Shown here: positions 1-35,205 of the stretch, one piece after another | Layout: every line of letters begins with the position of its first letter | Position numbering within the stretch: position 1 is the first letter of the stretch | NCBI GenBank assembly: GCA_019694955.1 | Contig: JAIBAX010000043.1 | Span: 1-41,498 of the forward strand | DNA from: Chitinophagales bacterium | GTDB lineage: Bacteria > Bacteroidota > Bacteroidia > Chitinophagales > JADIYW01 | Direction of reading: 5' to 3' | Length of the DNA: 41,498 nucleotides | Notes under the pieces: model-generated | What the model was told of the DNA's origin: nothing | Seen by the model: only the letters and a program-made list of their open reading frames with translations | Databases searched by the model: none | Made by a program: the position numbers and the translations under genes

Positions 1-2979
1 AAAAATATTGCCTGATTGTCTATGGATTTCAGCGATATAAAAGCCGCTATTTAGATGAATTATGGCGTCATTGAGGTAATTATATCCTTCTTCTATGTAA
101 ATGTTCTTACTGAATATGAGCTTACCTTCTATATTAAAGATATTTAATATTCCTTCGCCCGGGGTTGTTGCAAAGAATTCAAACTCAGGAACAGATTTAG
201 ACGGATTCGGAAATATTCGCAGATTTTCTTCTGTTGGTATTTGCACGGCTTCAATGGTTGTTTCTTCTTCAGAAAGTCTGGCATTGCAACCGCTATTTAA
301 ATATGTAGGATCATCCGTTCCAACATTTACGTTTAGTCCCAAACTGCCATTATTATTTGTTGATGATAAATCGTCTATTATTTGACTTCCAGTTGAATTA
401 AAATCCCAATACCCAACCAACCCATTCGATTGGGGGTTAATGGTAGTATTTTTATAGGTATTAATATCTGAAACACTTCTAGCGACATTCCAAATTCTTA
501 CTTCATCTATGTCACCTGTAAAGCCAAAGTAAGAGCCCCAAGTTGTTGTTCCAGTGGTTTTATATTTATTTCCACCGCCAATACTCCATCCAGATGCAAC
601 GGTAGGGCTTTCAATTGTATTTGTATATGTTTTGCTATTGCAAATGATGCCATCTACATATGCAGATAACATGTTGGCATTACGAACGATGGCAATATGG
701 TGCCACTTGCTATCATTTAGATTCTTACAGGGAAGAAAAACGAACTTTTTGCCATTTAGCCATATTTCTAAGCGATTTGTTCCATTATATCTACTGTATG
801 CTACAGTTAAGTTGTTTTTAAAGGGATAAAATGTTTGGGGTGCATTGGACAATAAAACCATGTAGTTCGTATTGCTAAAACCACGTGCTTTTAACTCGAT
901 GGTAAAACTCGATTTGCTAATATTTTGAAGTGCTATTGCAGGCATATTGACAAAATCTCCGGCACCACCTGTGTTGGTGAAATTCAGATAAGAACATGAT
1001 CCACCGCTGCTACCATTCGGTGTTTTAGTAAGCTTTATTTCTAAGTAACCAATAGAATATTTTCTATAATTAAAGGTATTGAGTGAACTTAATAGGATAT
1101 CCTCCGAAAATTGAATGGTTTTGTTTAGGTTAGTATTATAGAGCGTTTCATCATTTAAAAATGCAGTTGTACCACGACTGGCATATAATTTATCAGCAGT
1201 GGCAAAGGTGTGATGGATGGATTGAATAGCATAATCATAGGAAGTACTGATCATAGATAAGGCACCTAACCCAGCTGCAATATCCGCCTCAGTTTTATTA
1301 GAATAGTAGATATATAATGTACCACCATCTGTTTCTGAAGCACCTCCTGGTTTATAGAAAACCCGGTTTTTTATGTTGGGATTTGTTTGCAAAATATTGG
1401 TTGTACCATTACAAATATACAGGCTGTCTTTGCAGAGTGGTTTCAATATGGATGCAGCAATATAATTAGCCCGCTGTTTAACACTTTGCTGAGCAGCGTT
1501 ATAACTCATATTAGACAATTCATATGTTGGAAATGGATTTTCACTGGTGCCTAAATCTGCATCTGATGAAAACTGATGCGTAGCATATGGAATAAATTCT
1601 GAATCCGTGGTTAAGTTATTGGCATCCAACATTGTCAAGAAATATTCAAAATTATACATTGCCTGAAGTAAGGTATTGCCTACTTTTCTTCTGTTTGGAC
1701 CATAGGGGTCGCCGGGAATAGAAACGGCATCCATTTTTACTTCCCATTCCGTAATCCAAAGCTTCTTATTTCCTAATAAAGACCCATTTTTAAGCCCTAT
1801 AAACTCACTTAGTTTTTTATCTAAATAATAATTCATAGAATCCCTACAAGCAGGAAAATCTGTATCTAAATTATCTGTCAAAGTTAGTGGGTCGTATTTG
1901 AAAAAGTAGTTGTGTAAGATGTAAGCATCTGAGAAGTTTTGCATGTGGTTGTTCATGTAGTAGTTCCAAAGATTGATATAACCATTGTCATCCAAGAGTG
2001 GAACACCTATTTTAATATTGGCACCATTTGTTATTGAGTTTTTGATGATTTTACTATACATGCCGACCAAAGCAACATAATAACGAAGGGAAGCTGTATC
2101 AGTAGAAGTGTATATTTTTTGGTGAAGATCTATGCGTTCAAAAAGAGTAGTACTTGTTTTTTTGAAATCTGCTAAGGTATAATCAGACTGGTACTTGGTG
2201 TTGGCCAATTCATTTCCCATTTCTACTCCGGCCACACCGATTTCTGTATTTAAATCGGTGATTGCGTCATAGTTTTCTTTTACTAACTCGTAGAATTTCT
2301 GAGAAATCAATCCTTGATTTTTTTTCGATTCTAAGTCGGCGAGCGATGTGATTGATTCTATGGTTGCCACTTTTGTTATCAACTCATTTCTTAAGTTATC
2401 GTGGAAAGAAAAGTGTGGAATAATATTGAGGACATACATCACTTTGATATTATTATCTTGTACACCATCACCATTTTTATCACTATTCAAATCTTTCACA
2501 TACTTCATAAATGGAAAGATGATGTTGCCTTGTCCACCGTTAGGATTATTCCATCCAGCATAACCCTGATAGGTAGATGCGTTATTGGTGGCATTTTCAT
2601 CTTTCATTTTCTGATAACTCGCGTTTGTAATGGCTGGATCCCAATTTAAAATATTAACAGGACCTTCATCAATGCGCTCGCCAAATCCATTCCGCCATCT
2701 GTGATAGTCGTTCGAAATACCACCGCCGGGAAATCTAAGTGTATTGATATTTAAGTTATTGTATTCAGCAATTGCATCAGGATCAATCTCTCCATTATAA
2801 CTACCATCCGCATTTAAGTTGATGATAAATGACCATTGTCTGGAAAGGTTGTACCCTTGAAGGGTGTTCGCAATCTTTTTAGTATTTGTGTTTTCTAAAC
2901 TAATTACCTGAGCACAAGTTTTTGTGATAGAAAATTGTGTTACTAGGGTTAATAATAAAAACTTGTAGATGTTTTTCAT
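1..2979 (-). CDS. Secreted glycoside hydrolase (clan GH-A TIM-barrel) with LamG/concanavalin-like domain and T9SS (Por) C-terminal sorting domain. It is a paralog of the next gene, and its 3' end (last ~10 codons) runs off the window.
   Basis: On the reverse strand there is an ATG at 2979, followed by MKNIYKFLLLTLVTQFSITKTCAQVISLEN..NTLRFPGGGISNDYHRWRNGFGERIDEG... This is collinear with and very similar to the 1001-aa ORF 2987..5992. The frame is open to position 1. The + strand ORFs in this region are antisense artefacts. Confidence 0.7.
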   Translation of the reverse strand, partial: MKNIYKFLLLTLVTQFSITKTCAQVISLENTNTKKIANTLQGYNLSRQWSFIINLNADGSYNGEIDPDAIAEYNNLNINTLRFPGGGISNDYHRWRNGFGERIDEGPVNILNWDPAITNASYQKMKDENATNNASTYQGYAGWNNPNGGQGNIIFPFMKYVKDLNSDKNGDGVQDNNIKVMYVLNIIPHFSFHDNLRNELITKVATIESITSLADLESKKNQGLISQKFYELVKENYDAITDLNTEIGVAGVEMGNELANTKYQSDYTLADFKKTSTTLFERIDLHQKIYTSTDTASLRYYVALVGMYSKIIKNSITNGANIKIGVPLLDDNGYINLWNYYMNNHMQNFSDAYILHNYFFKYDPLTLTDNLDTDFPACRDSMNYYLDKKLSEFIGLKNGSLLGNKKLWITEWEVKMDAVSIPGDPYGPNRRKVGNTLLQAMYNFEYFLTMLDANNLTTDSEFIPYATHQFSSDADLGTSENPFPTYELSNMSYNAAQQSVKQRANYIAASILKPLCKDSLYICNGTTNILQTNPNIKNRVFYKPGGASETDGGTLYIYYSNKTEADIAAGLGALSMISTSYDYAIQSIHHTFATADKLYASRGTTAFLNDETLYNTNLNKTIQFSEDILLSSLNTFNYRKYSIGYLEIKLTKTPNGSSGGSCSYLNFTNTGGAGDFVNMPAIALQNISKSSFTIELKARGFSNTNYMVLLSNAPQTFYPFKNNLTVAYSRYNGTNRLEIWLNGKKFVFLPCKNLNDSKWHHIAIVRNANMLSAYVDGIICNSKTYTNTIESPTVASGWSIGGGNKYKTTGTTTWGSYFGFTGDIDEVRIWNVARSVSDINTYKNTTINPQSNGLVGYWDFNSTGSQIIDDLSSTNNNGSLGLNVNVGTDDPTYLNSGCNARLSEEETTIEAVQIPTEENLRIFPNPSKSVPEFEFFATTPGEGILNIFNIEGKLIFSKNIYIEEGYNYLNDAIIHLNSGFYIAEIHRQSGNIF

Positions 2980-8008: not shown

Positions 8009-9454
8009 TCATCCCATGGGTGTTATACTTCTTATTTTTGGAAATTGAACTACATGTTTGGTTTGAAGAGATAAAAGAGTTTTAATAAGCGTAATCCTGG
8101 TTTCCCGTGGAAAAATTACTTGGTCGATAATCCCTTCTGCCGCTGCCTCATAAGGATTTAGAAAGCGTTTTTTATATAGATCAATCTGCCCTTTTAAGTA
8201 TTGCTCAGGGTCGTTTTGTTTTAAAGCAGCTTTTTCAAACAAAATACTTAATGTCGCATCAGAGCCAACAACAGCAATGGCAGATTGAGGATAGGCAAAA
8301 TTATAATCAATACCCATGCCTTTTGGCCCCATAAAACCGTAAGCGCCGCCAATTAGTTTTCTCATGATAACTGTAATTTTAGGATTCGTTGAATTTCCTT
8401 GTGTCTGAAAATACCTGCCCCCACTTCCTAAGATACCATTCTCTTCTTGCTCCTTTCCTGGCAACATTCCGGGAGAATCTGCTAGAAAAACTACAGGAAT
8501 TTGATAGGCATCACAGATTTCTAAAAATCGGGCAGCCTTCTGCGATGCCTTTACATCAATAGCACCACCCAATACCATAGGTTGATTGGCAATGATACCA
8601 ATGTTCAGTCCACCGATTACTGAAAAACCTACAACTATGCTAGTACCAAAATCTTCATTGACTTCTAGAAAACGACCTTCATCAACTATCATTTCAATAA
8701 TATTCCGGACATCGTAGCCCTGCCTATCATCTTCAGGGAAAAAGTTGTCCAGTAAGGGAATAAGGTCTTTGTCAGAAATCTTATAGTTTGACAATGGTTT
8801 TTCAGCATCGAAATACTGAGGCAAGAAGGTTAGAATAGATTTTATCATTTCTATACCCTCATATTCATTTTGTACAACATGTGATGCCAATCCTGTTAAC
8901 TGACTATGTAAAAAGGCGCCACCTAGGTCATCAAAAGAATACGTTTTATTTAATACTTTCTCAATGACCTTTGGTCCAGTCAAGAACATATGTCCTTGAT
9001 TCTCTATCATAATGTTAAAATCTGACATGGAGGCAGCATAAGCAGAGCCACCTGCACATGAACCACAAATAATCGTGATATTAGGAATATAGCCAGAAAT
9101 TTCAGCCCATTTTTTTGCAAAAATTGCTGTACTGTCTATAGACATGGCGCCTTCTTGAATGCGCGCTCCACCTGAATCTATAAATCCAATAATAGGGGCT
9201 CGATTTTGTACTGCCATGTCAATGAGACGACAAATCTTTTGGCAATGATGTATGCCACTTGTACCTGCAAAATAAGTGACATCCTGAGAAAATGCAAAAG
9301 TCAATCTGCCATTTATAGTTCCAAACGCAGTAATAACACCATCACCAGTTCCATTCGTAAAAGAACCCCTTGAACAAATTAAAGAACCCACCTCCTCAAA
9401 AGAATGAAAGTCAAATAAATACTGAAGACGTTGACGCGCGGTTAATTTTTTCAT
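8009..9454 (-). CDS. Acyl-CoA carboxylase carboxyltransferase (beta) subunit, propionyl-CoA/methylmalonyl-CoA carboxyltransferase family
   Basis: Carboxyl transferase domain throughout (RLTFAFSQDVTYFAGTSG, GFIDSGGARIQEG, IICGSCAGGSAYAASMSD, ADSPGMLPGKEQE). Confidence 0.85.
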   Translation of the reverse strand: MKKLTARQRLQYLFDFHSFEEVGSLICSRGSFTNGTGDGVITAFGTINGRLTFAFSQDVTYFAGTSGIHHCQKICRLIDMAVQNRAPIIGFIDSGGARIQEGAMSIDSTAIFAKKWAEISGYIPNITIICGSCAGGSAYAASMSDFNIMIENQGHMFLTGPKVIEKVLNKTYSFDDLGGAFLHSQLTGLASHVVQNEYEGIEMIKSILTFLPQYFDAEKPLSNYKISDKDLIPLLDNFFPEDDRQGYDVRNIIEMIVDEGRFLEVNEDFGTSIVVGFSVIGGLNIGIIANQPMVLGGAIDVKASQKAARFLEICDAYQIPVVFLADSPGMLPGKEQEENGILGSGGRYFQTQGNSTNPKITVIMRKLIGGAYGFMGPKGMGIDYNFAYPQSAIAVVGSDATLSILFEKAALKQNDPEQYLKGQIDLYKKRFLNPYEAAAEGIIDQVIFPRETRITLIKTLLSLQTKHVVQFPKIRSITPMG

Positions 9455-10077: not shown

Positions 10078-10106
10078 CTTATATTTTACTAAATAAAAGT
10101 TGTTGA

Positions 10107-10140
10107 CCCCGGCCGATGCATCGAGCCGGGGATTTTTTAT
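10107..10140 (+). terminator. Rho-independent terminator (CCCCGGC-CGATGCATCGA-GCCGGGG followed by ATTTTTTATTTAT)
   Basis: Perfect 7-bp GC stem with a palindromic loop and a T-run. It overlaps the TTG start (10100) of the ORF-track model, so the real start of the downstream gene is the ATG at 10157. Confidence 0.7.
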
Positions 10141-10156
10141 TTATAAAAGTAACATT

Positions 10157-26913: not shown

Positions 26914-28113
26914 CTATAACCTTGTGTCCAGTGTACTTTCCACTTCTTCCTGCATGATTCTTTTATAACACAAAAGCTTCATCAGGTAGTTTTCGGCATC
27001 TATCTTTCGATACGGTATCTTGATCATGTCGGCACTGATTTGCCAGTCGTTAATAGAGCATTCTAATTTTGCTTTTATGTTTCGGCGCTCCAGATAATAG
27101 TCATACTGGTCATTGAAGCGAATGCCGTATATCAACTGCAAATAATGGTTGTTTCTGACTTTAAATGCTGGTGGCAATTGCGGTATAAAGCATTTTTCGG
27201 GTTTTACCATAACACCTTCTAAGGAAGCATCGATTAACCCTTGATAAAAGGAGTAAGCATTTGGCATATTTTCTTCAAAACTGGCAGATGCCACTACAAA
27301 TTGTTTGTCATCGCTCACTTTTTCGAAAGCAGCGATATTATTGTTGGGAATCTCCTCTCTCCCATCCAGGAAAATGTATTTGAGGATGTTAAAGGGTTTA
27401 AAGTGCAATTCGCCTTCGCTACCAAACATTTGCAATTGCTGTTCAAAGAGTGCTATCGCTTGTGCATATTTTTCCAAATCTTCAACGAAAAAGTTTCTAA
27501 TACTCTCATACTGGCGAATGATATGATCCTTGTAGTGTTGCTTGATTTCTTTTGCAGCCATTTTGGCTGTATCAAGGATATACTTCAAATAAGGTTCTGA
27601 GCGTTTAACTTGTTCAATTTTACTTAGGAGGGTGCTGTTTTGTAAAAAATGCAGGTGGTGTTCATGGCTGTACAGATAACCTGCAAATTCTCTTTCAATA
27701 AGTCCTTTTCCTAGTGCACTCCAAGGCATCAATTCACTTTGAACAATCACCCAATCGCCATTATTTTCCCAGAAATCGGTGAACTTCTCGTGCAGCGGTT
27801 TGCATTTTAACCGTGCATCTTCCACATCGATATAAGAGATGTCGTGGCCATTTCTGCTGACGAAGTATGTTTTTTCAATATCCCTGTTCAGGTATATATC
27901 GCAGTACGAACCCATGTATTTGGGTTGTAGGGTAACCTTTTGTACGCCTCTGTCAAAGAAGTATCGAATGGCTTCTTCCAAAGACTCGATTTCGTTTTTT
28001 TGCTTATTTTTTGGCGCAGGACTGATGGTTGGACTAAAATGGTTACACTTTGTTTTACAAAACCAATCTATTCTATTTTCTAATCTTCTCAACTCTGCCG
28101 GACTTTTTTCCAT
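26914..28113 (-). CDS. Stand-alone ATP-dependent polynucleotide ligase-type nucleotidyltransferase. I predict it is the ligase component of a split Pnkp/Hen1-type RNA repair system.
   Basis: Covalent nucleotidyltransferase motif I variant VTLQPKYMGSYC (KxxG) and motif IV EGVMVKPEK. It sits 5 bp downstream of hen1 on the same strand. Confidence 0.55.
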   Translation of the reverse strand: MEKSPAELRRLENRIDWFCKTKCNHFSPTISPAPKNKQKNEIESLEEAIRYFFDRGVQKVTLQPKYMGSYCDIYLNRDIEKTYFVSRNGHDISYIDVEDARLKCKPLHEKFTDFWENNGDWVIVQSELMPWSALGKGLIEREFAGYLYSHEHHLHFLQNSTLLSKIEQVKRSEPYLKYILDTAKMAAKEIKQHYKDHIIRQYESIRNFFVEDLEKYAQAIALFEQQLQMFGSEGELHFKPFNILKYIFLDGREEIPNNNIAAFEKVSDDKQFVVASASFEENMPNAYSFYQGLIDASLEGVMVKPEKCFIPQLPPAFKVRNNHYLQLIYGIRFNDQYDYYLERRNIKAKLECSINDWQISADMIKIPYRKIDAENYLMKLLCYKRIMQEEVESTLDTRL

Positions 28114-28118
28114 AGTGG

Positions 28119-29393
28119 TTAATTTTTCTTGTCAATTATTGCAACATGTGTAGGATAAGTGCCTCTTATGCAGTCACCGATGCCGTATGTTTTCACGTTC
28201 ATGTCTTTAAAAATATCTTGAATCATAGATTCGAACTCATGTTGGCCCATTTCATATTTATGGTCTTCATGTCTGAAATTACCGTCAAGTTCATAGTGCT
28301 GATTAAAATCGCCATTGGGTGTGGTGATGATGATGCGCAAGAAATCCAATCCCGCCACTTCTTTGAGGAAGGTAATGGAATCTTCGACCGTGTTATGTTC
28401 TATCACCTCTGAAATGATGATATTTACAGGCTCGTCAATGTCTATATCTGCCAGTTCGGTACTAAATGTCAACAAGGGGTAGTCCCGTTGGTACTTTGCA
28501 GCGATTTCTCCAAAGGTTTCTTCCCTGTCGACGGCAAAATATGGGCGTTTAAATCCTTTGTTTCTGAACATCTTAAAGTATTGTAACTCACCGCAGCCAA
28601 TATCTAAAATGGGGTGCTCCAGTCCGATGGCTTTCAATACTTCTATTTTTCTGGTTTGGTAATTGTCTGTAAAGGAGAATTTTATTTCGTGGTTGAAATA
28701 CGCCTCTACTACGGGTTGTATCGTTTCGAATGCCTTTTCTGAACGGATACATTTTTTGATGAACAGGTAAAATACGAAATAGGGCAAGTGTTCAATATTG
28801 GTCATAATCCTTACATACTTCAGGTACCATTCTTCGTTGAGGTATGCGGATGGGTATGAATTGGTAATATCGATTAGGCAGGCAATTAGTGCCAATAAAT
28901 TCATGGCTTCGAAAAGGTTGCCAGCCTCAATCTTGAGATGGTAATTGTTACCGATGACATGGGTTAATGAAACGCCTTTAATATATTTTCCCAATAAAAA
29001 ACGCCCATTTCGATACCAAGAACTGTCGAGATAAAAATTGGGTACTTCAATAACCGCCGGAGTATGGTCGATGGTTTCATAGGTTTTGTCTAACCAACTG
29101 ACGACTTTTGCCTGATAAGTTTGTTTCTCTATGATAAGATGGCTGAAAAACTGGTTGATGATCTGCAAAACTACACCGGGATTACAATAGGATTGGAAAT
29201 CCATCTGCCCTCTTTCGGTTTGGAAGCTATCTTTAGTATCTTGAAAGATAACTTCATAGTGATGTGCATCCACGCAATTGCCCACCATTACGCCATTTTT
29301 AAGCGGTTTTAGGTATAATCCCAAATCTGTTCCCGGATTTTTATTCAGAATATCCAAGAAATAAGCATTCTCGCAACTTATTTTAATAATCAT
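28119..29393 (-). CDS. hen1: Bacterial Hen1, RNA 3'-terminal ribose 2'-O-methyltransferase
   Basis: C-terminal methyltransferase with SAM motif ILDIGCGE and the Hen1-specific metal-binding EVIEH ... FRHEDHKYEM motifs. It has an N-terminal ~200-aa domain as in bacterial Hen1. Confidence 0.8.
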   Translation of the reverse strand: MIIKISCENAYFLDILNKNPGTDLGLYLKPLKNGVMVGNCVDAHHYEVIFQDTKDSFQTERGQMDFQSYCNPGVVLQIINQFFSHLIIEKQTYQAKVVSWLDKTYETIDHTPAVIEVPNFYLDSSWYRNGRFLLGKYIKGVSLTHVIGNNYHLKIEAGNLFEAMNLLALIACLIDITNSYPSAYLNEEWYLKYVRIMTNIEHLPYFVFYLFIKKCIRSEKAFETIQPVVEAYFNHEIKFSFTDNYQTRKIEVLKAIGLEHPILDIGCGELQYFKMFRNKGFKRPYFAVDREETFGEIAAKYQRDYPLLTFSTELADIDIDEPVNIIISEVIEHNTVEDSITFLKEVAGLDFLRIIITTPNGDFNQHYELDGNFRHEDHKYEMGQHEFESMIQDIFKDMNVKTYGIGDCIRGTYPTHVAIIDKKN

Positions 29394-29408
29394 ACATATT
29401 GTTTGAGG

Positions 29409-30320
29409 TTAAAATTCGATTAGTCCCTGATTGACGTTGAAGCAAAATATGCCTTCATCGTACCACATCTTGCAGACTTGCAGTCGGTCATCAACGGCGA
29501 AAAGTACATTATAATTCGGCAAAATTTGTTCGTTTAAGATTTCCGACTTAATGATACTGTCTTTGCGGTAGTCTCCGGTTTTTCGCATCAACAACTGGCA
29601 ATCTTTTATTCCCGTATGTTGTTCAATCCACTTCAAGGATACTTGCTTGTATTTATCTTCTCTTCCGGAAACAAAGATAATGGTGTATTTTATTGCTAAC
29701 GGCACAATAACTTCCACCACAGGTATATTGGGCTGATCTGCTAAGATTTCGGCTTCTTCCGGGTTAAACATATCTCTATTCGTGATACATAATGTACCAT
29801 CGAGGTCGCAGAGGACGGCATAGGGTTTCTCAGGCTGAAAAGGTTGCTGTTTAGCACGGTGTGGGCGGTCTGTTTTTGGTCTATCAGAAAAATCAAAAGA
29901 TTGCACAAGGTGCTTGACGCGGTCAAATCCTGACCGTATTACACCCAAGGGTACTTTTCTGGTTCTTTCTTGGTTGCGCTCTAAAAGTTCTTCCAATGGC
30001 ACTTCGAAGACCTTAAATTTAATGTCTGCAAGATGATTAAACCGTTGGATAATCTCGTCTAAATATTCTTTTTTTGTATGGGTGTTGTCGATGAGCAAGT
30101 TTTTGCCCTTTGCTAATGCTGTACCCATCATTTTATAGGTTATTTCCGTAAGGAGGTCTTCATCATAAAATTCCATTTGCTCAGAAAAGCGCAGCATTTT
30201 TCTAAGATCGTCGCGATTTATCCTAAAGACATCGTGGAATTTTGCATAATATTCGGCAAACGTAGATTTCCCCGAGCAAGGACTTCCTATTAATACCAAT
30301 ATTTGAGGTGCTTTCTTCAT
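29409..30320 (-). CDS. Phage-T4-type polynucleotide 5'-kinase/3'-phosphatase (Pnk: N-terminal P-loop kinase plus C-terminal HAD phosphatase). The ATG at 30320 (MKKAPQILVLIGSPCSGKST) is preferred over 30332.
   Basis: MKKAPQILVLIGSPCSGKSTF...INRDD resembles T4 Pnk MKKIILTIGCPGSGKSTW...INRDD. HAD motif I VLCDLDGTL. C-terminus RKDSIIKSEILNEQILPNYNVLFAVDDRLQVCKMWYDEGIFCFNV resembles T4 [45 protein letters not shown]. Confidence 0.88.
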   Translation of the reverse strand: MKKAPQILVLIGSPCSGKSTFAEYYAKFHDVFRINRDDLRKMLRFSEQMEFYDEDLLTEITYKMMGTALAKGKNLLIDNTHTKKEYLDEIIQRFNHLADIKFKVFEVPLEELLERNQERTRKVPLGVIRSGFDRVKHLVQSFDFSDRPKTDRPHRAKQQPFQPEKPYAVLCDLDGTLCITNRDMFNPEEAEILADQPNIPVVEVIVPLAIKYTIIFVSGREDKYKQVSLKWIEQHTGIKDCQLLMRKTGDYRKDSIIKSEILNEQILPNYNVLFAVDDRLQVCKMWYDEGIFCFNVNQGLIEF

Positions 30321-30367
30321 ATTGCAAACCATTCATTTTGTGGTGCGAAAATAGGAAATCCATCTGT

Positions 30368-30392
30368 AAAATCAACCTCCGAGGTTGATTTT
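30368..30392. repeat. Short form (25-bp palindrome AAAATCAACCTC-C-GAGGTTGATTTT) of the TCAACCTCG..GGTTGA repeat family, between the alpha/beta-hydrolase stop and the pnk start
   Basis: The 12-nt arms are exact reverse complements. It shares the outer arm TCAACCTCG with the 12648 and 36583 elements. Confidence 0.75.
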
Positions 30393-31244
30393 AAGGAAGT
30401 CGTATATCAGCACTGGCAATTCCTCATGGAAAGCGGCACGGTTAAACTCCGGAAGATCGGTGGCAGGAAGGAATCCCGGTTGTGTCATGGAAGCAGGGAA
30501 AGGGCTAATAAAGGAAAAATGTCCTGCATTTTTAATGGTAACAGATGACAGTTTTGTAGCATCGGCAACGCCTTGACGTATAATGTCTTCCGTCCACATC
30601 TTTGGTAGGATGGCATCTTTTTCGGCAATGAGCAGTAAAATAGGAATATTTACTTGCTCCAAAGAATGTGGATGCATGAAATAGGGTGCCGCCGGAGCCA
30701 TGAGTACCAAGGCTTTTAATCTCGCATCTTTAACGGTATCTACACGCTCTCCTGCCTGTGTATAGGGAATACCACCAGCCAATGCTAATGCCGTATAGCC
30801 ACCAAAGGAATGGCCGATTACTGCAATTTTTTCGCTATCTATATGTTCAGCAAAACTGTCTTCCAATAGCGCATCAATGGTCAAACTTACGTGAAATGGG
30901 CGATAACGAAGGTTTTCGATTGTTTTTTCCAAGGCATTATTGTTGCGGTTATTGCCGTAATGTTCTATCATGGCAATTATATAGCCCTGTTTTGCCAGAT
31001 AGGTGCTGATGGTTCTATAAAGAAAATAAGAACCGCTGTTTCCATGAGAGATGATGATTAAGGGAAATTCACCCTCCATAAGGTCGGCATCCACACTTAC
31101 ATCCAGCACGTAGGGACCAAAATTTGTTGGGGAAGAAGGTTGTCGTGTGGGATAATGTATGAGCACAGGGAAGTCAACCTGATGGGTTTCATCTTTTAAT
31201 TGTATGAGTTTACTTCCTGTGAATGTAACTTTTAAATCGTTCAT
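30372..31244 (-). CDS. Alpha/beta-hydrolase (dienelactone hydrolase/PAF-acetylhydrolase-like), first gene of the pnk-hen1-lig string
   Basis: Nucleophile elbow VIGHSFGGYTA (GxSxG). Confidence 0.7.
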   Translation of the reverse strand: MNDLKVTFTGSKLIQLKDETHQVDFPVLIHYPTRQPSSPTNFGPYVLDVSVDADLMEGEFPLIIISHGNSGSYFLYRTISTYLAKQGYIIAMIEHYGNNRNNNALEKTIENLRYRPFHVSLTIDALLEDSFAEHIDSEKIAVIGHSFGGYTALALAGGIPYTQAGERVDTVKDARLKALVLMAPAAPYFMHPHSLEQVNIPILLLIAEKDAILPKMWTEDIIRQGVADATKLSSVTIKNAGHFSFISPFPASMTQPGFLPATDLPEFNRAAFHEELPVLIYDFLKINLGG

Positions 31245-33849: not shown

Positions 33850-35205
33850 ATGTATATGAATAGAACTAAAAATTGGTTAAGAGTATTGATAATCAATATT
33901 TTATTGTTTGTTATCTACTCGTTACCCGCACAAAACAAGGTAAAAGTGTATCATTTTACTTTAAGTCAGGAGATCATGCCGGCAGCAAAAAGACATGTCA
34001 CAAAGGCGATTTCAGAAGCAGAAAAATGGAAAGCTGATTATATTATAGTATCCTTGAATACTTACGGTGGTATGGTGGACGTTGCAGATACTATTCGCAC
34101 CAGGCTTTTAAAGACGAAGCCTACAACCATTGTATTTATCCAGAACAATGCCGCTTCTGCAGGTGCCTTGATTGCCCTTTCTTGTGATAGTATTTATATG
34201 GCAAAGGGTGCCAGTATTGGTGCTGCCACAGTGGTTAATGAGTCAGGAGAAAAGCTGCCGGATAAATACCAATCATACATGCGTTCAAAAATGCGTTCAA
34301 CAGCAGAAACCCAAGGAAGGAATCCAACTATTGCCGAAGGAATGGTGGATGAATCAATCTTTATTGCTGGAATGAAGGACACGGGAAAAATTCTCACTTT
34401 CACTACGGAAGAAGCTATAAAATATGATTTCTGTGACGGTTTTGCGGAAAATATTGAAGAAGCCCTGAAAAATGCAGGTGTTACCAACTATGAACTCAAG
34501 TCATATCAGCCAACAGCCTTAGATGCTTTTATTTCTTTTCTGTTAAACCCTATTGTAAACAGTATTTTATTGCTGATGATTGTTGGCGGTATTTTTTACG
34601 AAATGAAAGCGCCCGGAATCGGCTTTGCCTTGGGGTGTGCAATTGTGGGCGCTATCCTATACTTTGCACCACTATATTTAGAAGGTTTGGCCAAGAATTG
34701 GGAAATTTTGGTGTTCCTTGCCGGACTTATTTTACTGGCGCTAGAGATTTTTGTCATACCGGGTTTTGGTATTGCAGGTATCAGCGGGATTTTATGTATC
34801 ATCATCGGTTTAGGGTTGGCATTAATTGATAATGATAAGCTGAACTTTGAAGGTATCGGTATGCTGTCTGTCGGCTGGGCGTTTTTTAGGGTTACTGCAG
34901 TAGTATTTTTTGGACTCATCTTCTTTCTCATATTTGGCAAGTCGATGTTTGAATCGAAAGCCCTTGCGCCGATGATACTGAAGAATGAAGAAACTGCCCA
35001 CCATGGCTTTAGTGTTGCCAGAGCAGACTATAAGCAATTGGGTGGAAAAGAAGGTTTCGCCCTTACTGATTTGCGTCCAAGCGGAAAAGTCTCCATTGAA
35101 GAAGAAGTGTATGATGCACTGACATTGGGAGAATATATTACCAAAGGAACTGCCATTAAGGTTGTCAAACATGAAGGATATTCTATTGTCGTAAAACAGG
35201 TATAG
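33850..35205 (+). CDS. NfeD-family membrane-bound ClpP-class serine protease (stomatin-operon partner protein), with no SPFH gene adjacent here
   Basis: ClpP-like N-domain (YGGMVDVADTI...NNAASAGALIALSCD), central TM helices, C-terminal OB-like NfeD domain. Confidence 0.75.
   Translation: MYMNRTKNWLRVLIINILLFVIYSLPAQNKVKVYHFTLSQEIMPAAKRHVTKAISEAEKWKADYIIVSLNTYGGMVDVADTIRTRLLKTKPTTIVFIQNNAASAGALIALSCDSIYMAKGASIGAATVVNESGEKLPDKYQSYMRSKMRSTAETQGRNPTIAEGMVDESIFIAGMKDTGKILTFTTEEAIKYDFCDGFAENIEEALKNAGVTNYELKSYQPTALDAFISFLLNPIVNSILLLMIVGGIFYEMKAPGIGFALGCAIVGAILYFAPLYLEGLAKNWEILVFLAGLILLALEIFVIPGFGIAGISGILCIIIGLGLALIDNDKLNFEGIGMLSVGWAFFRVTAVVFFGLIFFLIFGKSMFESKALAPMILKNEETAHHGFSVARADYKQLGGKEGFALTDLRPSGKVSIEEEVYDALTLGEYITKGTAIKVVKHEGYSIVVKQV

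Follow-up and report, generated by a model that had tools for sequence, protein, structure and literature searches.

A pnkp1-hen1-rnl operon in a Chitinophagales genome, very probably orthologous to the RNA repair system Pnkp1-Rnl-Hen1 of Capnocytophaga gingivalis

In the classical bacterial Pnkp/Hen1 systems of Clostridium thermocellum and Anabaena variabilis, a single Pnkp of about 850-870 amino acids fuses kinase, calcineurin-type phosphoesterase and ligase domains, and its ligase is activated by Hen1. A "hybrid" system, described in 2015 from Capnocytophaga gingivalis, combines a homologue of phage T4 Pnkp (Pnkp1), a stand-alone homologue of the Pnkp ligase domain (Rnl) and a distant Hen1 (Wang, Selvadurai & Huang, Nat Commun 2015, PMC4411300). 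Its Pnkp1 dimerises, Rnl forms one pairwise complex with Pnkp1 and another with Hen1, and all three together form a heterohexamer, whose structures are 4XRP and 4XRU (PMC4411300). Repair of colicin-cleaved transfer RNA (tRNA) in vitro requires all three proteins, Rnl activity depends on Hen1, and ligation is at least tenfold faster with S-adenosylmethionine (SAM); the junction is methylated, the repaired RNA withstands re-cleavage, and an ordered path from kinase and phosphatase to methyltransferase to ligase was proposed (PMC4411300). In C. gingivalis, hen1 lies far from the rnl-pnkp1 operon, and which subunits associate first was decided from this gene order; the system was recorded in 10 species, mostly oral Capnocytophaga, and why it should be so restricted was posed as a question (PMC4411300). 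Here we analysed a 41,498-nucleotide stretch of a Chitinophagales genome assembly (GCA_019694955.1, contig JAIBAX010000043.1; hereafter, the window), in which three contiguous genes on one strand, in the order pnkp1-hen1-rnl, encode the same three kinds of protein.

The best match of each operon protein among solved structures was a different chain of one complex, 4XRP/4XRU, and the three genes are very probably orthologues of the C. gingivalis system. The two share the same three proteins, domain architectures and catalytic residues, including a HAD-type phosphatase, a stand-alone ligase and a Hen1 carrying a ligase-activating N-terminal domain. They differ in host (oral Capnocytophaga versus Chitinophagales) and in layout, with an rnl-pnkp1 operon and a remote hen1 in C. 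gingivalis and a single pnkp1-hen1-rnl operon in the window. An initial annotation, made from the window sequence alone, had proposed three tightly linked genes separated by short spacers and knew of no described split, T4-Pnk-type Hen1 system. The linkage was confirmed, with intact minus-strand open reading frames (ORFs) for all three genes (Table 1), whereas the supposed novelty was not: such a system had been found, reconstituted and crystallised in 2015 (PMC4411300; 4XRP/4XRU). What is new here is the host group and the pnkp1-hen1-rnl order; the system itself was already known. The first protein has the stated 303 amino acids if translation starts at position 30320, as in MBX7227319.1 of GenBank, but the first ATG of the frame yields 307. 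The window Hen1 is identical in sequence to MBX7227318.1, from a Chitinophagales metagenome-assembled genome (MAG).

The same annotation had read the first protein as T4-Pnk-like with a HAD rather than a calcineurin-type phosphatase, the second as a bona fide Hen1 and the third as a separate ligase, and structure and profile searches agree with each of these assignments. Pnkp1 matched 4XRP_A best (E 1.1e-50, 39% identity, near full length), followed by T4 Pnkp itself (1LTQ, E 1.5e-32, 37% identity over a whole-length alignment), and Pfam found HAD_PNKP (7.5e-35) and AAA_33 (6e-18); no Metallophos (calcineurin-type) domain was detected by Pfam in any of the three operon proteins. All motifs quoted for the three proteins were present in the translations, those of Pnkp1 being the P-loop GSPCSGKST, INRDD and the HAD motif DLDGTL. 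We mapped onto Pnkp1 the T4 Pnkp residues that we take, from the mutational literature, to be essential. Kinase residues K22, S23, D41, R44 and R123 align with T4 K15, S16, D35, R38 and R126, and phosphatase residues D176, D178, R186, R224, D258, K262, D281 and D282 with T4 D165, D167, R176, R213, D254, K258, D277 and D278, respectively. The mapped residues were invariant in 13 family members, except S23 (at least 90%). Pnkp1 is thus predicted to be a bifunctional 5'-kinase/3'-phosphatase of the T4 Pnkp type, in which a P-loop kinase occupies the N terminus and a HAD (DxDxT) phosphatase the C terminus.

The Hen1 of the window matched 4XRP_C over residues 1-423 (E 3e-122, 47% identity), with classical Hen1 methyltransferase domains following at 4e-08 (CthHen1), and Pfam detected Hen1_N at 6.8e-50; the ligase-activating N-terminal domain spans about residues 2-233. 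Its translation contains the SAM motif ILDIGCGE as well as EVIEH and HEDH, and in 82 distinct family sequences both the SAM-site residues (D264/G266/C267/G268 and D289) and the metal-site residues (E329, E332, H333, D377 and H378) were invariant. These features point to an RNA 3'-terminal ribose 2'-O-methyltransferase with a SAM- and metal-dependent C-terminal domain. Rnl matched 4XRP_B over residues 11-399 (E 8.7e-119, 49% identity), then the ligase domain of C. thermocellum Pnkp (3TY9, 8e-15), and the Pfam profile PNKP_ligase at 1.3e-23. It carries KYMGS (motif I, in which the lysine is K65) and EGVMVKP, and K65-Y-M-G-S69, R87/N88/G89, E127, E299/G300/K304 and K318/R320 were invariant in 25 distinct family sequences, as expected of a putative stand-alone ATP-dependent RNA ligase homologous to the Pnkp ligase domain. 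Overall, the motifs and domain matches of the three proteins are not due to chance, and the predicted folds can be regarded as settled by the matches to solved structures. Because the ORFs are intact and the mapped catalytic residues are kept, we infer that the genes are functional.

No NCBIfam model reached its own cut-off for any of the three proteins. The equivalog for bacterial Hen1 (TIGR04074, bacter_Hen1) gave the window Hen1 47 bits versus a cut-off of 340, and that for classical Pnkp (TIGR04075) gave operon proteins 34 and 74 bits versus 750; scores so far under the cut-offs indicate a divergent branch rather than the classical Pnkp/Hen1 system. Both share the same four predicted chemistries, the ligase family and Hen1-dependent ligase activation, but in the window the genes are split, a T4-type protein of its own carrying the kinase together with a HAD phosphatase. 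Likewise, Pnkp1 aligns with T4 Pnkp over its full length and keeps all catalytic residues compared, whereas the predicted sealing enzyme is a Hen1-dependent Pnkp-type ligase, not the Rnl1 of the T4 pathway, and the junction is predicted to be 2'-O-methylated. Product names in GenBank are "AAA family ATPase" for Pnkp1, "class I SAM-dependent methyltransferase" for Hen1 and "hypothetical protein" for Rnl, and a PADLOC scan of its defence-system library assigned the operon to none of the systems.

A search of about 5.8 billion proteins returned 322 clusters at E <= 1e-10, and the named sources in the 120 best clusters were Flavobacterium, Capnocytophaga, Apibacter, Taibaiella, Rhizosphaericola, Tannerella and unclassified Bacteroidota. 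The system is spread across Bacteroidota, much more widely than the ten species of 2015. The initial annotation had made its reading depend on co-localisation of the three orthologues in other genomes, and we found all three clustered in at least 21 distinct loci of other organisms, including Flavobacterium, Capnocytophaga cynodegmi, Taibaiella, Rhizosphaericola, a Bacteroidales MAG and metagenomes. Layouts of 98 loci (given below as L numbers) were assigned by tblastn and neighbour Pfam tables; they come from a metagenome scan (the best 80 of 191 hits, mostly redundant human-oral contigs) and ten exact-protein look-ups, and the counts are therefore not prevalences. A scan of genome contigs with a single-protein query gave one locus. 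Solo hen1, which agrees with the published layout, accounted for 64 highly redundant contigs, of which nearly all derive from human-oral metagenomes. The order hen1-rnl-pnkp1 was found in 15 loci, is shared by most relatives of non-oral origin and was taxonomically the most widespread, its carriers including C. cynodegmi, Flavobacterium hungaricum, Taibaiella helva, Rhizosphaericola mali and a Bacteroidales MAG; tblastn also assigned it to L001. Six sequences showed pnkp1-hen1-rnl: the window, L002/L003 (one sequence twice), L012, L096 and L097. Finally, five loci (L080, L085, L086, L088 and L093), all metagenome contigs apparently from termite gut, had hen1-rnl without a T4-type pnkp1 in the several kilobases available; in the two inspected, L085 and L086, the genes after rnl lie on the opposite strand. 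In these contigs, either pnkp1 lies elsewhere or a different enzyme heals the ends.

In a neighbour-joining tree of Hen1, all pnkp1-hen1-rnl loci fell into a single clade, the window's own (52-56% identity), and among the 98 loci this order was found only there; the same clade also holds L098, a short contig with no pnkp1 upstream. Solo hen1 was nested within Capnocytophaga, beside the clustered C. cynodegmi locus. On the simplest reading, hen1-rnl-pnkp1 would be ancestral, pnkp1 would have moved to the front once in the window clade, and the operon would have broken up in some oral Capnocytophaga. Throughout the clustered loci seen, hen1 directly precedes rnl. This adjacency fits Hen1-dependent activation of the ligase, as the initial annotation had suggested from the position of the ligase gene after hen1.

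Relatives with the hen1-rnl-pnkp1 order from Chitinophagales and of Flavobacterium type share recurring companions, namely an SPFH/Band-7 gene, one or two RlaP (PF10127) nucleotidyltransferases and an S24-peptidase-like protein of about 108 amino acids. A T4 Rnl1-type ligase gene (PF09511) lies within or just upstream of the operon in some relatives, so that L004, L012 and L035 hold a T4-like Pnkp and Rnl1 pair plus a Hen1 and Rnl pair. PF09511 matched none of the window ORFs scanned, which were those with 150 or more amino acids plus a 112-amino-acid (DUF805) and an 80-amino-acid ORF. In L073, the last ~45 nucleotides of pnkp1 and ~250 nucleotides downstream are present three times in direct orientation.

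By analogy with C. gingivalis, we expect the three window proteins to work as a (Pnkp1)2(Rnl)2(Hen1)2 heterohexamer. Published salt bridges join Pnkp1 R29/R33/K110 with Rnl E369/D379 (PMC4411300). In the window, Pnkp1 R29 is replaced by E27 and Rnl D379 by K384, which reverses the polarity of the R29/D379 pair. Among 13 loci with both proteins, Pnkp1 E27 occurred with Rnl L380/K384, or R/K27 with N380/D384, and the two were never mixed. This covarying charge swap fits a Pnkp1-Rnl interface that may have been retained with reversed polarity. The phosphatase-dimer residues are mostly kept in the window Pnkp1 (V205, V208, Y216, F278, F298 and V300).

We infer the mechanism of the window proteins from the characterised C. 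gingivalis complex. A transesterifying ribotoxin would cut RNA to leave a 2',3'-cyclic phosphate (or 3'-phosphate) and a 5'-OH end. The P-loop kinase domain of Pnkp1 would phosphorylate the 5'-OH, and its HAD domain would strip the 3'- or 2',3'-cyclic phosphate via an aspartyl-phosphate on D176. Hen1 would then 2'-O-methylate the healed 3'-terminal nucleoside, with SAM and a divalent metal held by E329/E332/H333/H378. Rnl, presumed to need the N-terminal domain of Hen1 as a bound partner for any activity, would be adenylylated on K65, pass adenosine monophosphate to the 5'-phosphate and seal the break, and the 2'-O-methyl group at the junction would prevent re-cleavage at the same site.

Several points weigh against carrying this model over to the window in full. 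The window gene order is unlike that published for C. gingivalis; the latter (rnl-pnkp1, with hen1 elsewhere) is the arrangement of the examples found first and need not hold for the system to function. Several published kinase-dimer residues are replaced (R63 by L60 and L75 by A72), such that the oligomeric state could differ. The two interface states follow clades, and their covariation may represent as few as one evolutionary event. Moreover, the in vivo substrate and role are not established even for C. gingivalis (PMC4411300).

The last of these points leaves room for a reading, possible if unlikely, in which the predicted chemistry is right and the job differs: the system may undo cuts made by the cell's own toxin-antitoxin systems or anticodon nucleases, or it may process or mark RNA in a programmed step. 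It would not exclude repair of ribotoxin damage. The 2015 authors themselves say that the in vivo substrates are not known and describe a generic-looking complex (PMC4411300), and the operon neighbours in relatives (RlaP, Band-7, the small S24-like protein and a tRNA-like RNA described below) hint at a more elaborate pathway; in one relative, PIN and XisH/XisI genes lie nearby. However, no toxin or nuclease gene adjoins the window operon, and experimental evidence within the family is limited to the in vitro repair of colicin-cleaved tRNA.

It is improbable that the three proteins are separate enzymes that form no heterohexamer and are linked only for co-regulation. Such independence would accommodate the replaced dimer and interface residues, the variable gene order across the family and the lack of pnkp1 near hen1-rnl in several contigs, but it leaves the hen1-rnl adjacency of all clustered loci seen, the need of Rnl for Hen1 in the studied homologue, the covarying Pnkp1-Rnl charge swap and the mostly kept phosphatase-dimer residues unaccounted for.

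Less probable still, at a level we regard as slight, is an origin as phage cargo, that is, a T4-like counter-defence module on a prophage or mobile island. Pnkp1 does resemble T4 Pnkp at 37% identity, and large or jumbo phages (Xanthomonas XacN1, Stenotrophomonas CM1/RAS14 and Vibrio RYC) have a hen1 gene adjoining a separate Rnl-type ligase gene. These phage proteins are only 25-30% identical to the window Hen1 and Rnl. In XacN1, predicted kinase, hen1 and rnl genes follow one another; the kinase has 164 amino acids and no annotated phosphatase, and the ligase is annotated "metallophosphoesterase". Against a phage origin, the window operon is flanked by genes other than phage, integrase or transposase genes, there is no sharp break in GC content at the operon, an IMG/VR scan gave only two distant matches to the window Hen1 type, and the Hen1 tree groups by bacterial lineage. 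The classical architecture can also be seen on a 416 kb IMG/VR contig classed as viral (L095), which encodes Hen1 and a fused 861-amino-acid Pnkp with kinase, calcineurin-type phosphoesterase and ligase domains, with a NusG-like gene just upstream.

A classical fused Pnkp/Hen1 locus broken by frameshift or misassembly, for which only the general risk in MAGs speaks, can be excluded: the phosphatase is of the HAD superfamily and not of the calcineurin type, hen1 stands between the kinase-phosphatase and ligase genes, and the same split recurs in dozens of independent assemblies and in the crystal structure 4XRP.

We also inspected the surroundings of the operon. Immediately upstream on the same strand is an unrelated alpha/beta-hydrolase gene, and 185 bp downstream of rnl is a convergent NAD-dependent epimerase gene; neither recurs beside the operon in relatives, and the operon therefore comprises three genes. 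The hydrolase gene was specifically ruled out as a fourth member, being missing from every relative with the same gene order. GC content is 0.39-0.40 over the three genes versus 0.40-0.44 in the flanking 5 kb. A scan for sigma-70-type promoters found no site upstream of pnkp1, where a weak Bacteroidota-type sequence (TTG, 19 nt, TATTTTCG) might serve as a promoter. Promoter and terminator consensus scans gave sites no more numerous than in shuffled sequence, with none in intergenic regions.

Elsewhere, the window contains a second RNA-repair cluster, with genes for an AAA+ ATPase, the ligase RtcB, an ATP-dependent RNA ligase of the Rnl5/DraRnl-NgrRnl type and an SPFH/Band-7 protein, so that, together with the operon Rnl, there are three RNA ligases of different families. 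The 11-15 kb stretch has a GC content of 0.38-0.47 versus 0.28-0.37 in the 2-kb flanks, and its GC skew is strongly positive. An NfeD gene usually stands next to an SPFH partner gene. In the window, about 18 kb separate an NfeD-family gene from the Band-7/SPFH gene, and the Band-7 gene beside the Rnl5-type ligase seems to be a separate, repair-associated paralogue.

Between RtcB and the Rnl5-type ligase is a non-coding gap of ~600 nucleotides, which opens with a perfect 19-bp inverted repeat, probably a terminator or a processing hairpin upstream of the tRNA-like element that follows. The T-arm of this element reads GAAGG-TTCGAAT-CCTTC, with a loop of TTCRAWT across copies. Directly after it comes a hairpin of 5-7 bp, resembling an acceptor stem capped with a loop, that differs in sequence in every copy and always pairs. 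Four of the five copies continue with "TA" and a D-arm-like hairpin of 4 bp; the window copy has "CC" instead of "TA" and a weak D-stem with two G-U pairs. The parts stand in the order of a tRNA in which a loop closes the acceptor end, as in a permuted tRNA or a tRNA mimic, and bring to mind the tRNA-mimic domain found in YrlA RNAs of bacteria. A 2016 survey by Burroughs and Aravind is said to link a "novel tRNA-like molecule" to Band-7 modules, and reportedly may already catalogue both clustered layouts and the Band-7-associated tRNA-like RNA.

The four related copies that we found each adjoin a hen1-rnl-pnkp1 operon, with an RlaP, Band-7 or small S24-like gene as neighbour (Table 1), and nothing like the element was found beside the window's own operon. 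The window element escapes both ARAGORN and Rfam, its minimum-free-energy fold is no more stable than that of shuffled sequence, and MAFFT could not align all five copies. A covariance model built from three copies and run over 41 sources (the window and 40 loci) recovered those three and no others, so the element does not always accompany the operon.

Taken further, the pnkp1-hen1-rnl order may mark a lineage in which the complex assembles in another order than that deduced for C. gingivalis from its genes, with Hen1 and Rnl assembling first and Pnkp1 made ahead of both, and the operon may also work with the RtcB, tRNA-like RNA, Rnl5 and Band-7 cluster as one RNA-repair island, in which the permuted tRNA-like RNA would be a cofactor or decoy; we offer this as speculation and consider it rather unlikely to hold.

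Table 1. Positions of the operon, its surroundings, the second RNA-repair cluster and features of related loci
Feature	Sequence	Position	Strand	Remarks
pnkp1	window	29409..30332	minus	Intact ORF, 307 amino acids from ATG at 30332
Spacer, pnkp1 stop to hen1 start	window	29394..29408	minus	15 bp
hen1	window	28119..29393	minus	Intact ORF, 424 amino acids
Spacer, hen1 stop to rnl start	window	28114..28118	minus	5 bp
rnl	window	26914..28113	minus	Intact ORF, 399 amino acids
Region upstream of pnkp1	window	30333..30375	minus	Overlaps end of unrelated alpha/beta-hydrolase gene
Weak promoter candidate	window	30353-30346		Position of TATTTTCG
Alpha/beta-hydrolase gene	window	30372-31244	minus	39 bp upstream of pnkp1
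AAA+ ATPase	window	10100-11224	+
RtcB ligase	window	11224-12645	+
Perfect 19-bp inverted repeat	window	12646-12690	+	AATCAACCTCGAGGGTTGG / CCAACCCTCGAGGTTGA; directly after RtcB stop codon
tRNA-like element	window	12780-12841	+	In gap between RtcB and Rnl5-type ligase
Rnl5/DraRnl-NgrRnl-type RNA ligase	window	13250-14278	+	Naegleria NgrRnl 5COT 4e-61; TIGR02306 above cut-off
SPFH/Band-7 protein	window	14358-15539	+
NfeD-family gene	window	33850-35205	+	NfeD1b_N, membrane, C-terminal partner-binding domains
Rnl1-type gene	L012	3997-5004		Between pnkp1 and hen1
Rnl1-type gene	L004	3768-4787		Beside operon
Rnl1-type gene	L035	3724-4740		Beside operon
Companion genes	L007	586-4246
Companion genes	L008	2545-4458
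Companion genes	L073	9736-10509
Companion genes	L035	8723-9049
Direct repeats	L073	about 8340-8630, 8631-8920, 9172-9300		tRNA-like element between second and third
tRNA-like copy	L035	8493-8552		Just downstream of operon; Flavobacterium-type
tRNA-like copy	L073	9015-9074		Just downstream of operon; Flavobacterium-type
tRNA-like copy	L007 (Taibaiella)	226-278		Upstream of operon
tRNA-like copy	L008 (Rhizosphaericola)	2074-2127		Upstream of operon
Predicted kinase, hen1, rnl	L099, Xanthomonas phage XacN1	103018-106092		Same order as window
Adjacent Hen1 and Rnl-type ligase genes	L100, Vibrio phage RYC	115349-118566		Methyltransferase part of Hen1 inside 717-amino-acid protein annotated "polynucleotide kinase"
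Hen1 and fused Pnkp	L095	4950-9326		Classical contrast

The window system leaves the understanding of the chemistry unchanged. What it brings to light is a structurally characterised RNA-repair machine that is invisible in current annotation. Clustered operons are taxonomically widespread, whereas the unlinked hen1 looks derived and peculiar to some oral Capnocytophaga; an assembly order deduced from C. gingivalis gene order therefore does not generalise. The recurring companions of the operon in relatives (RlaP, Band-7, the small S24-like protein and the tRNA-like RNA) provide leads to its role in vivo.

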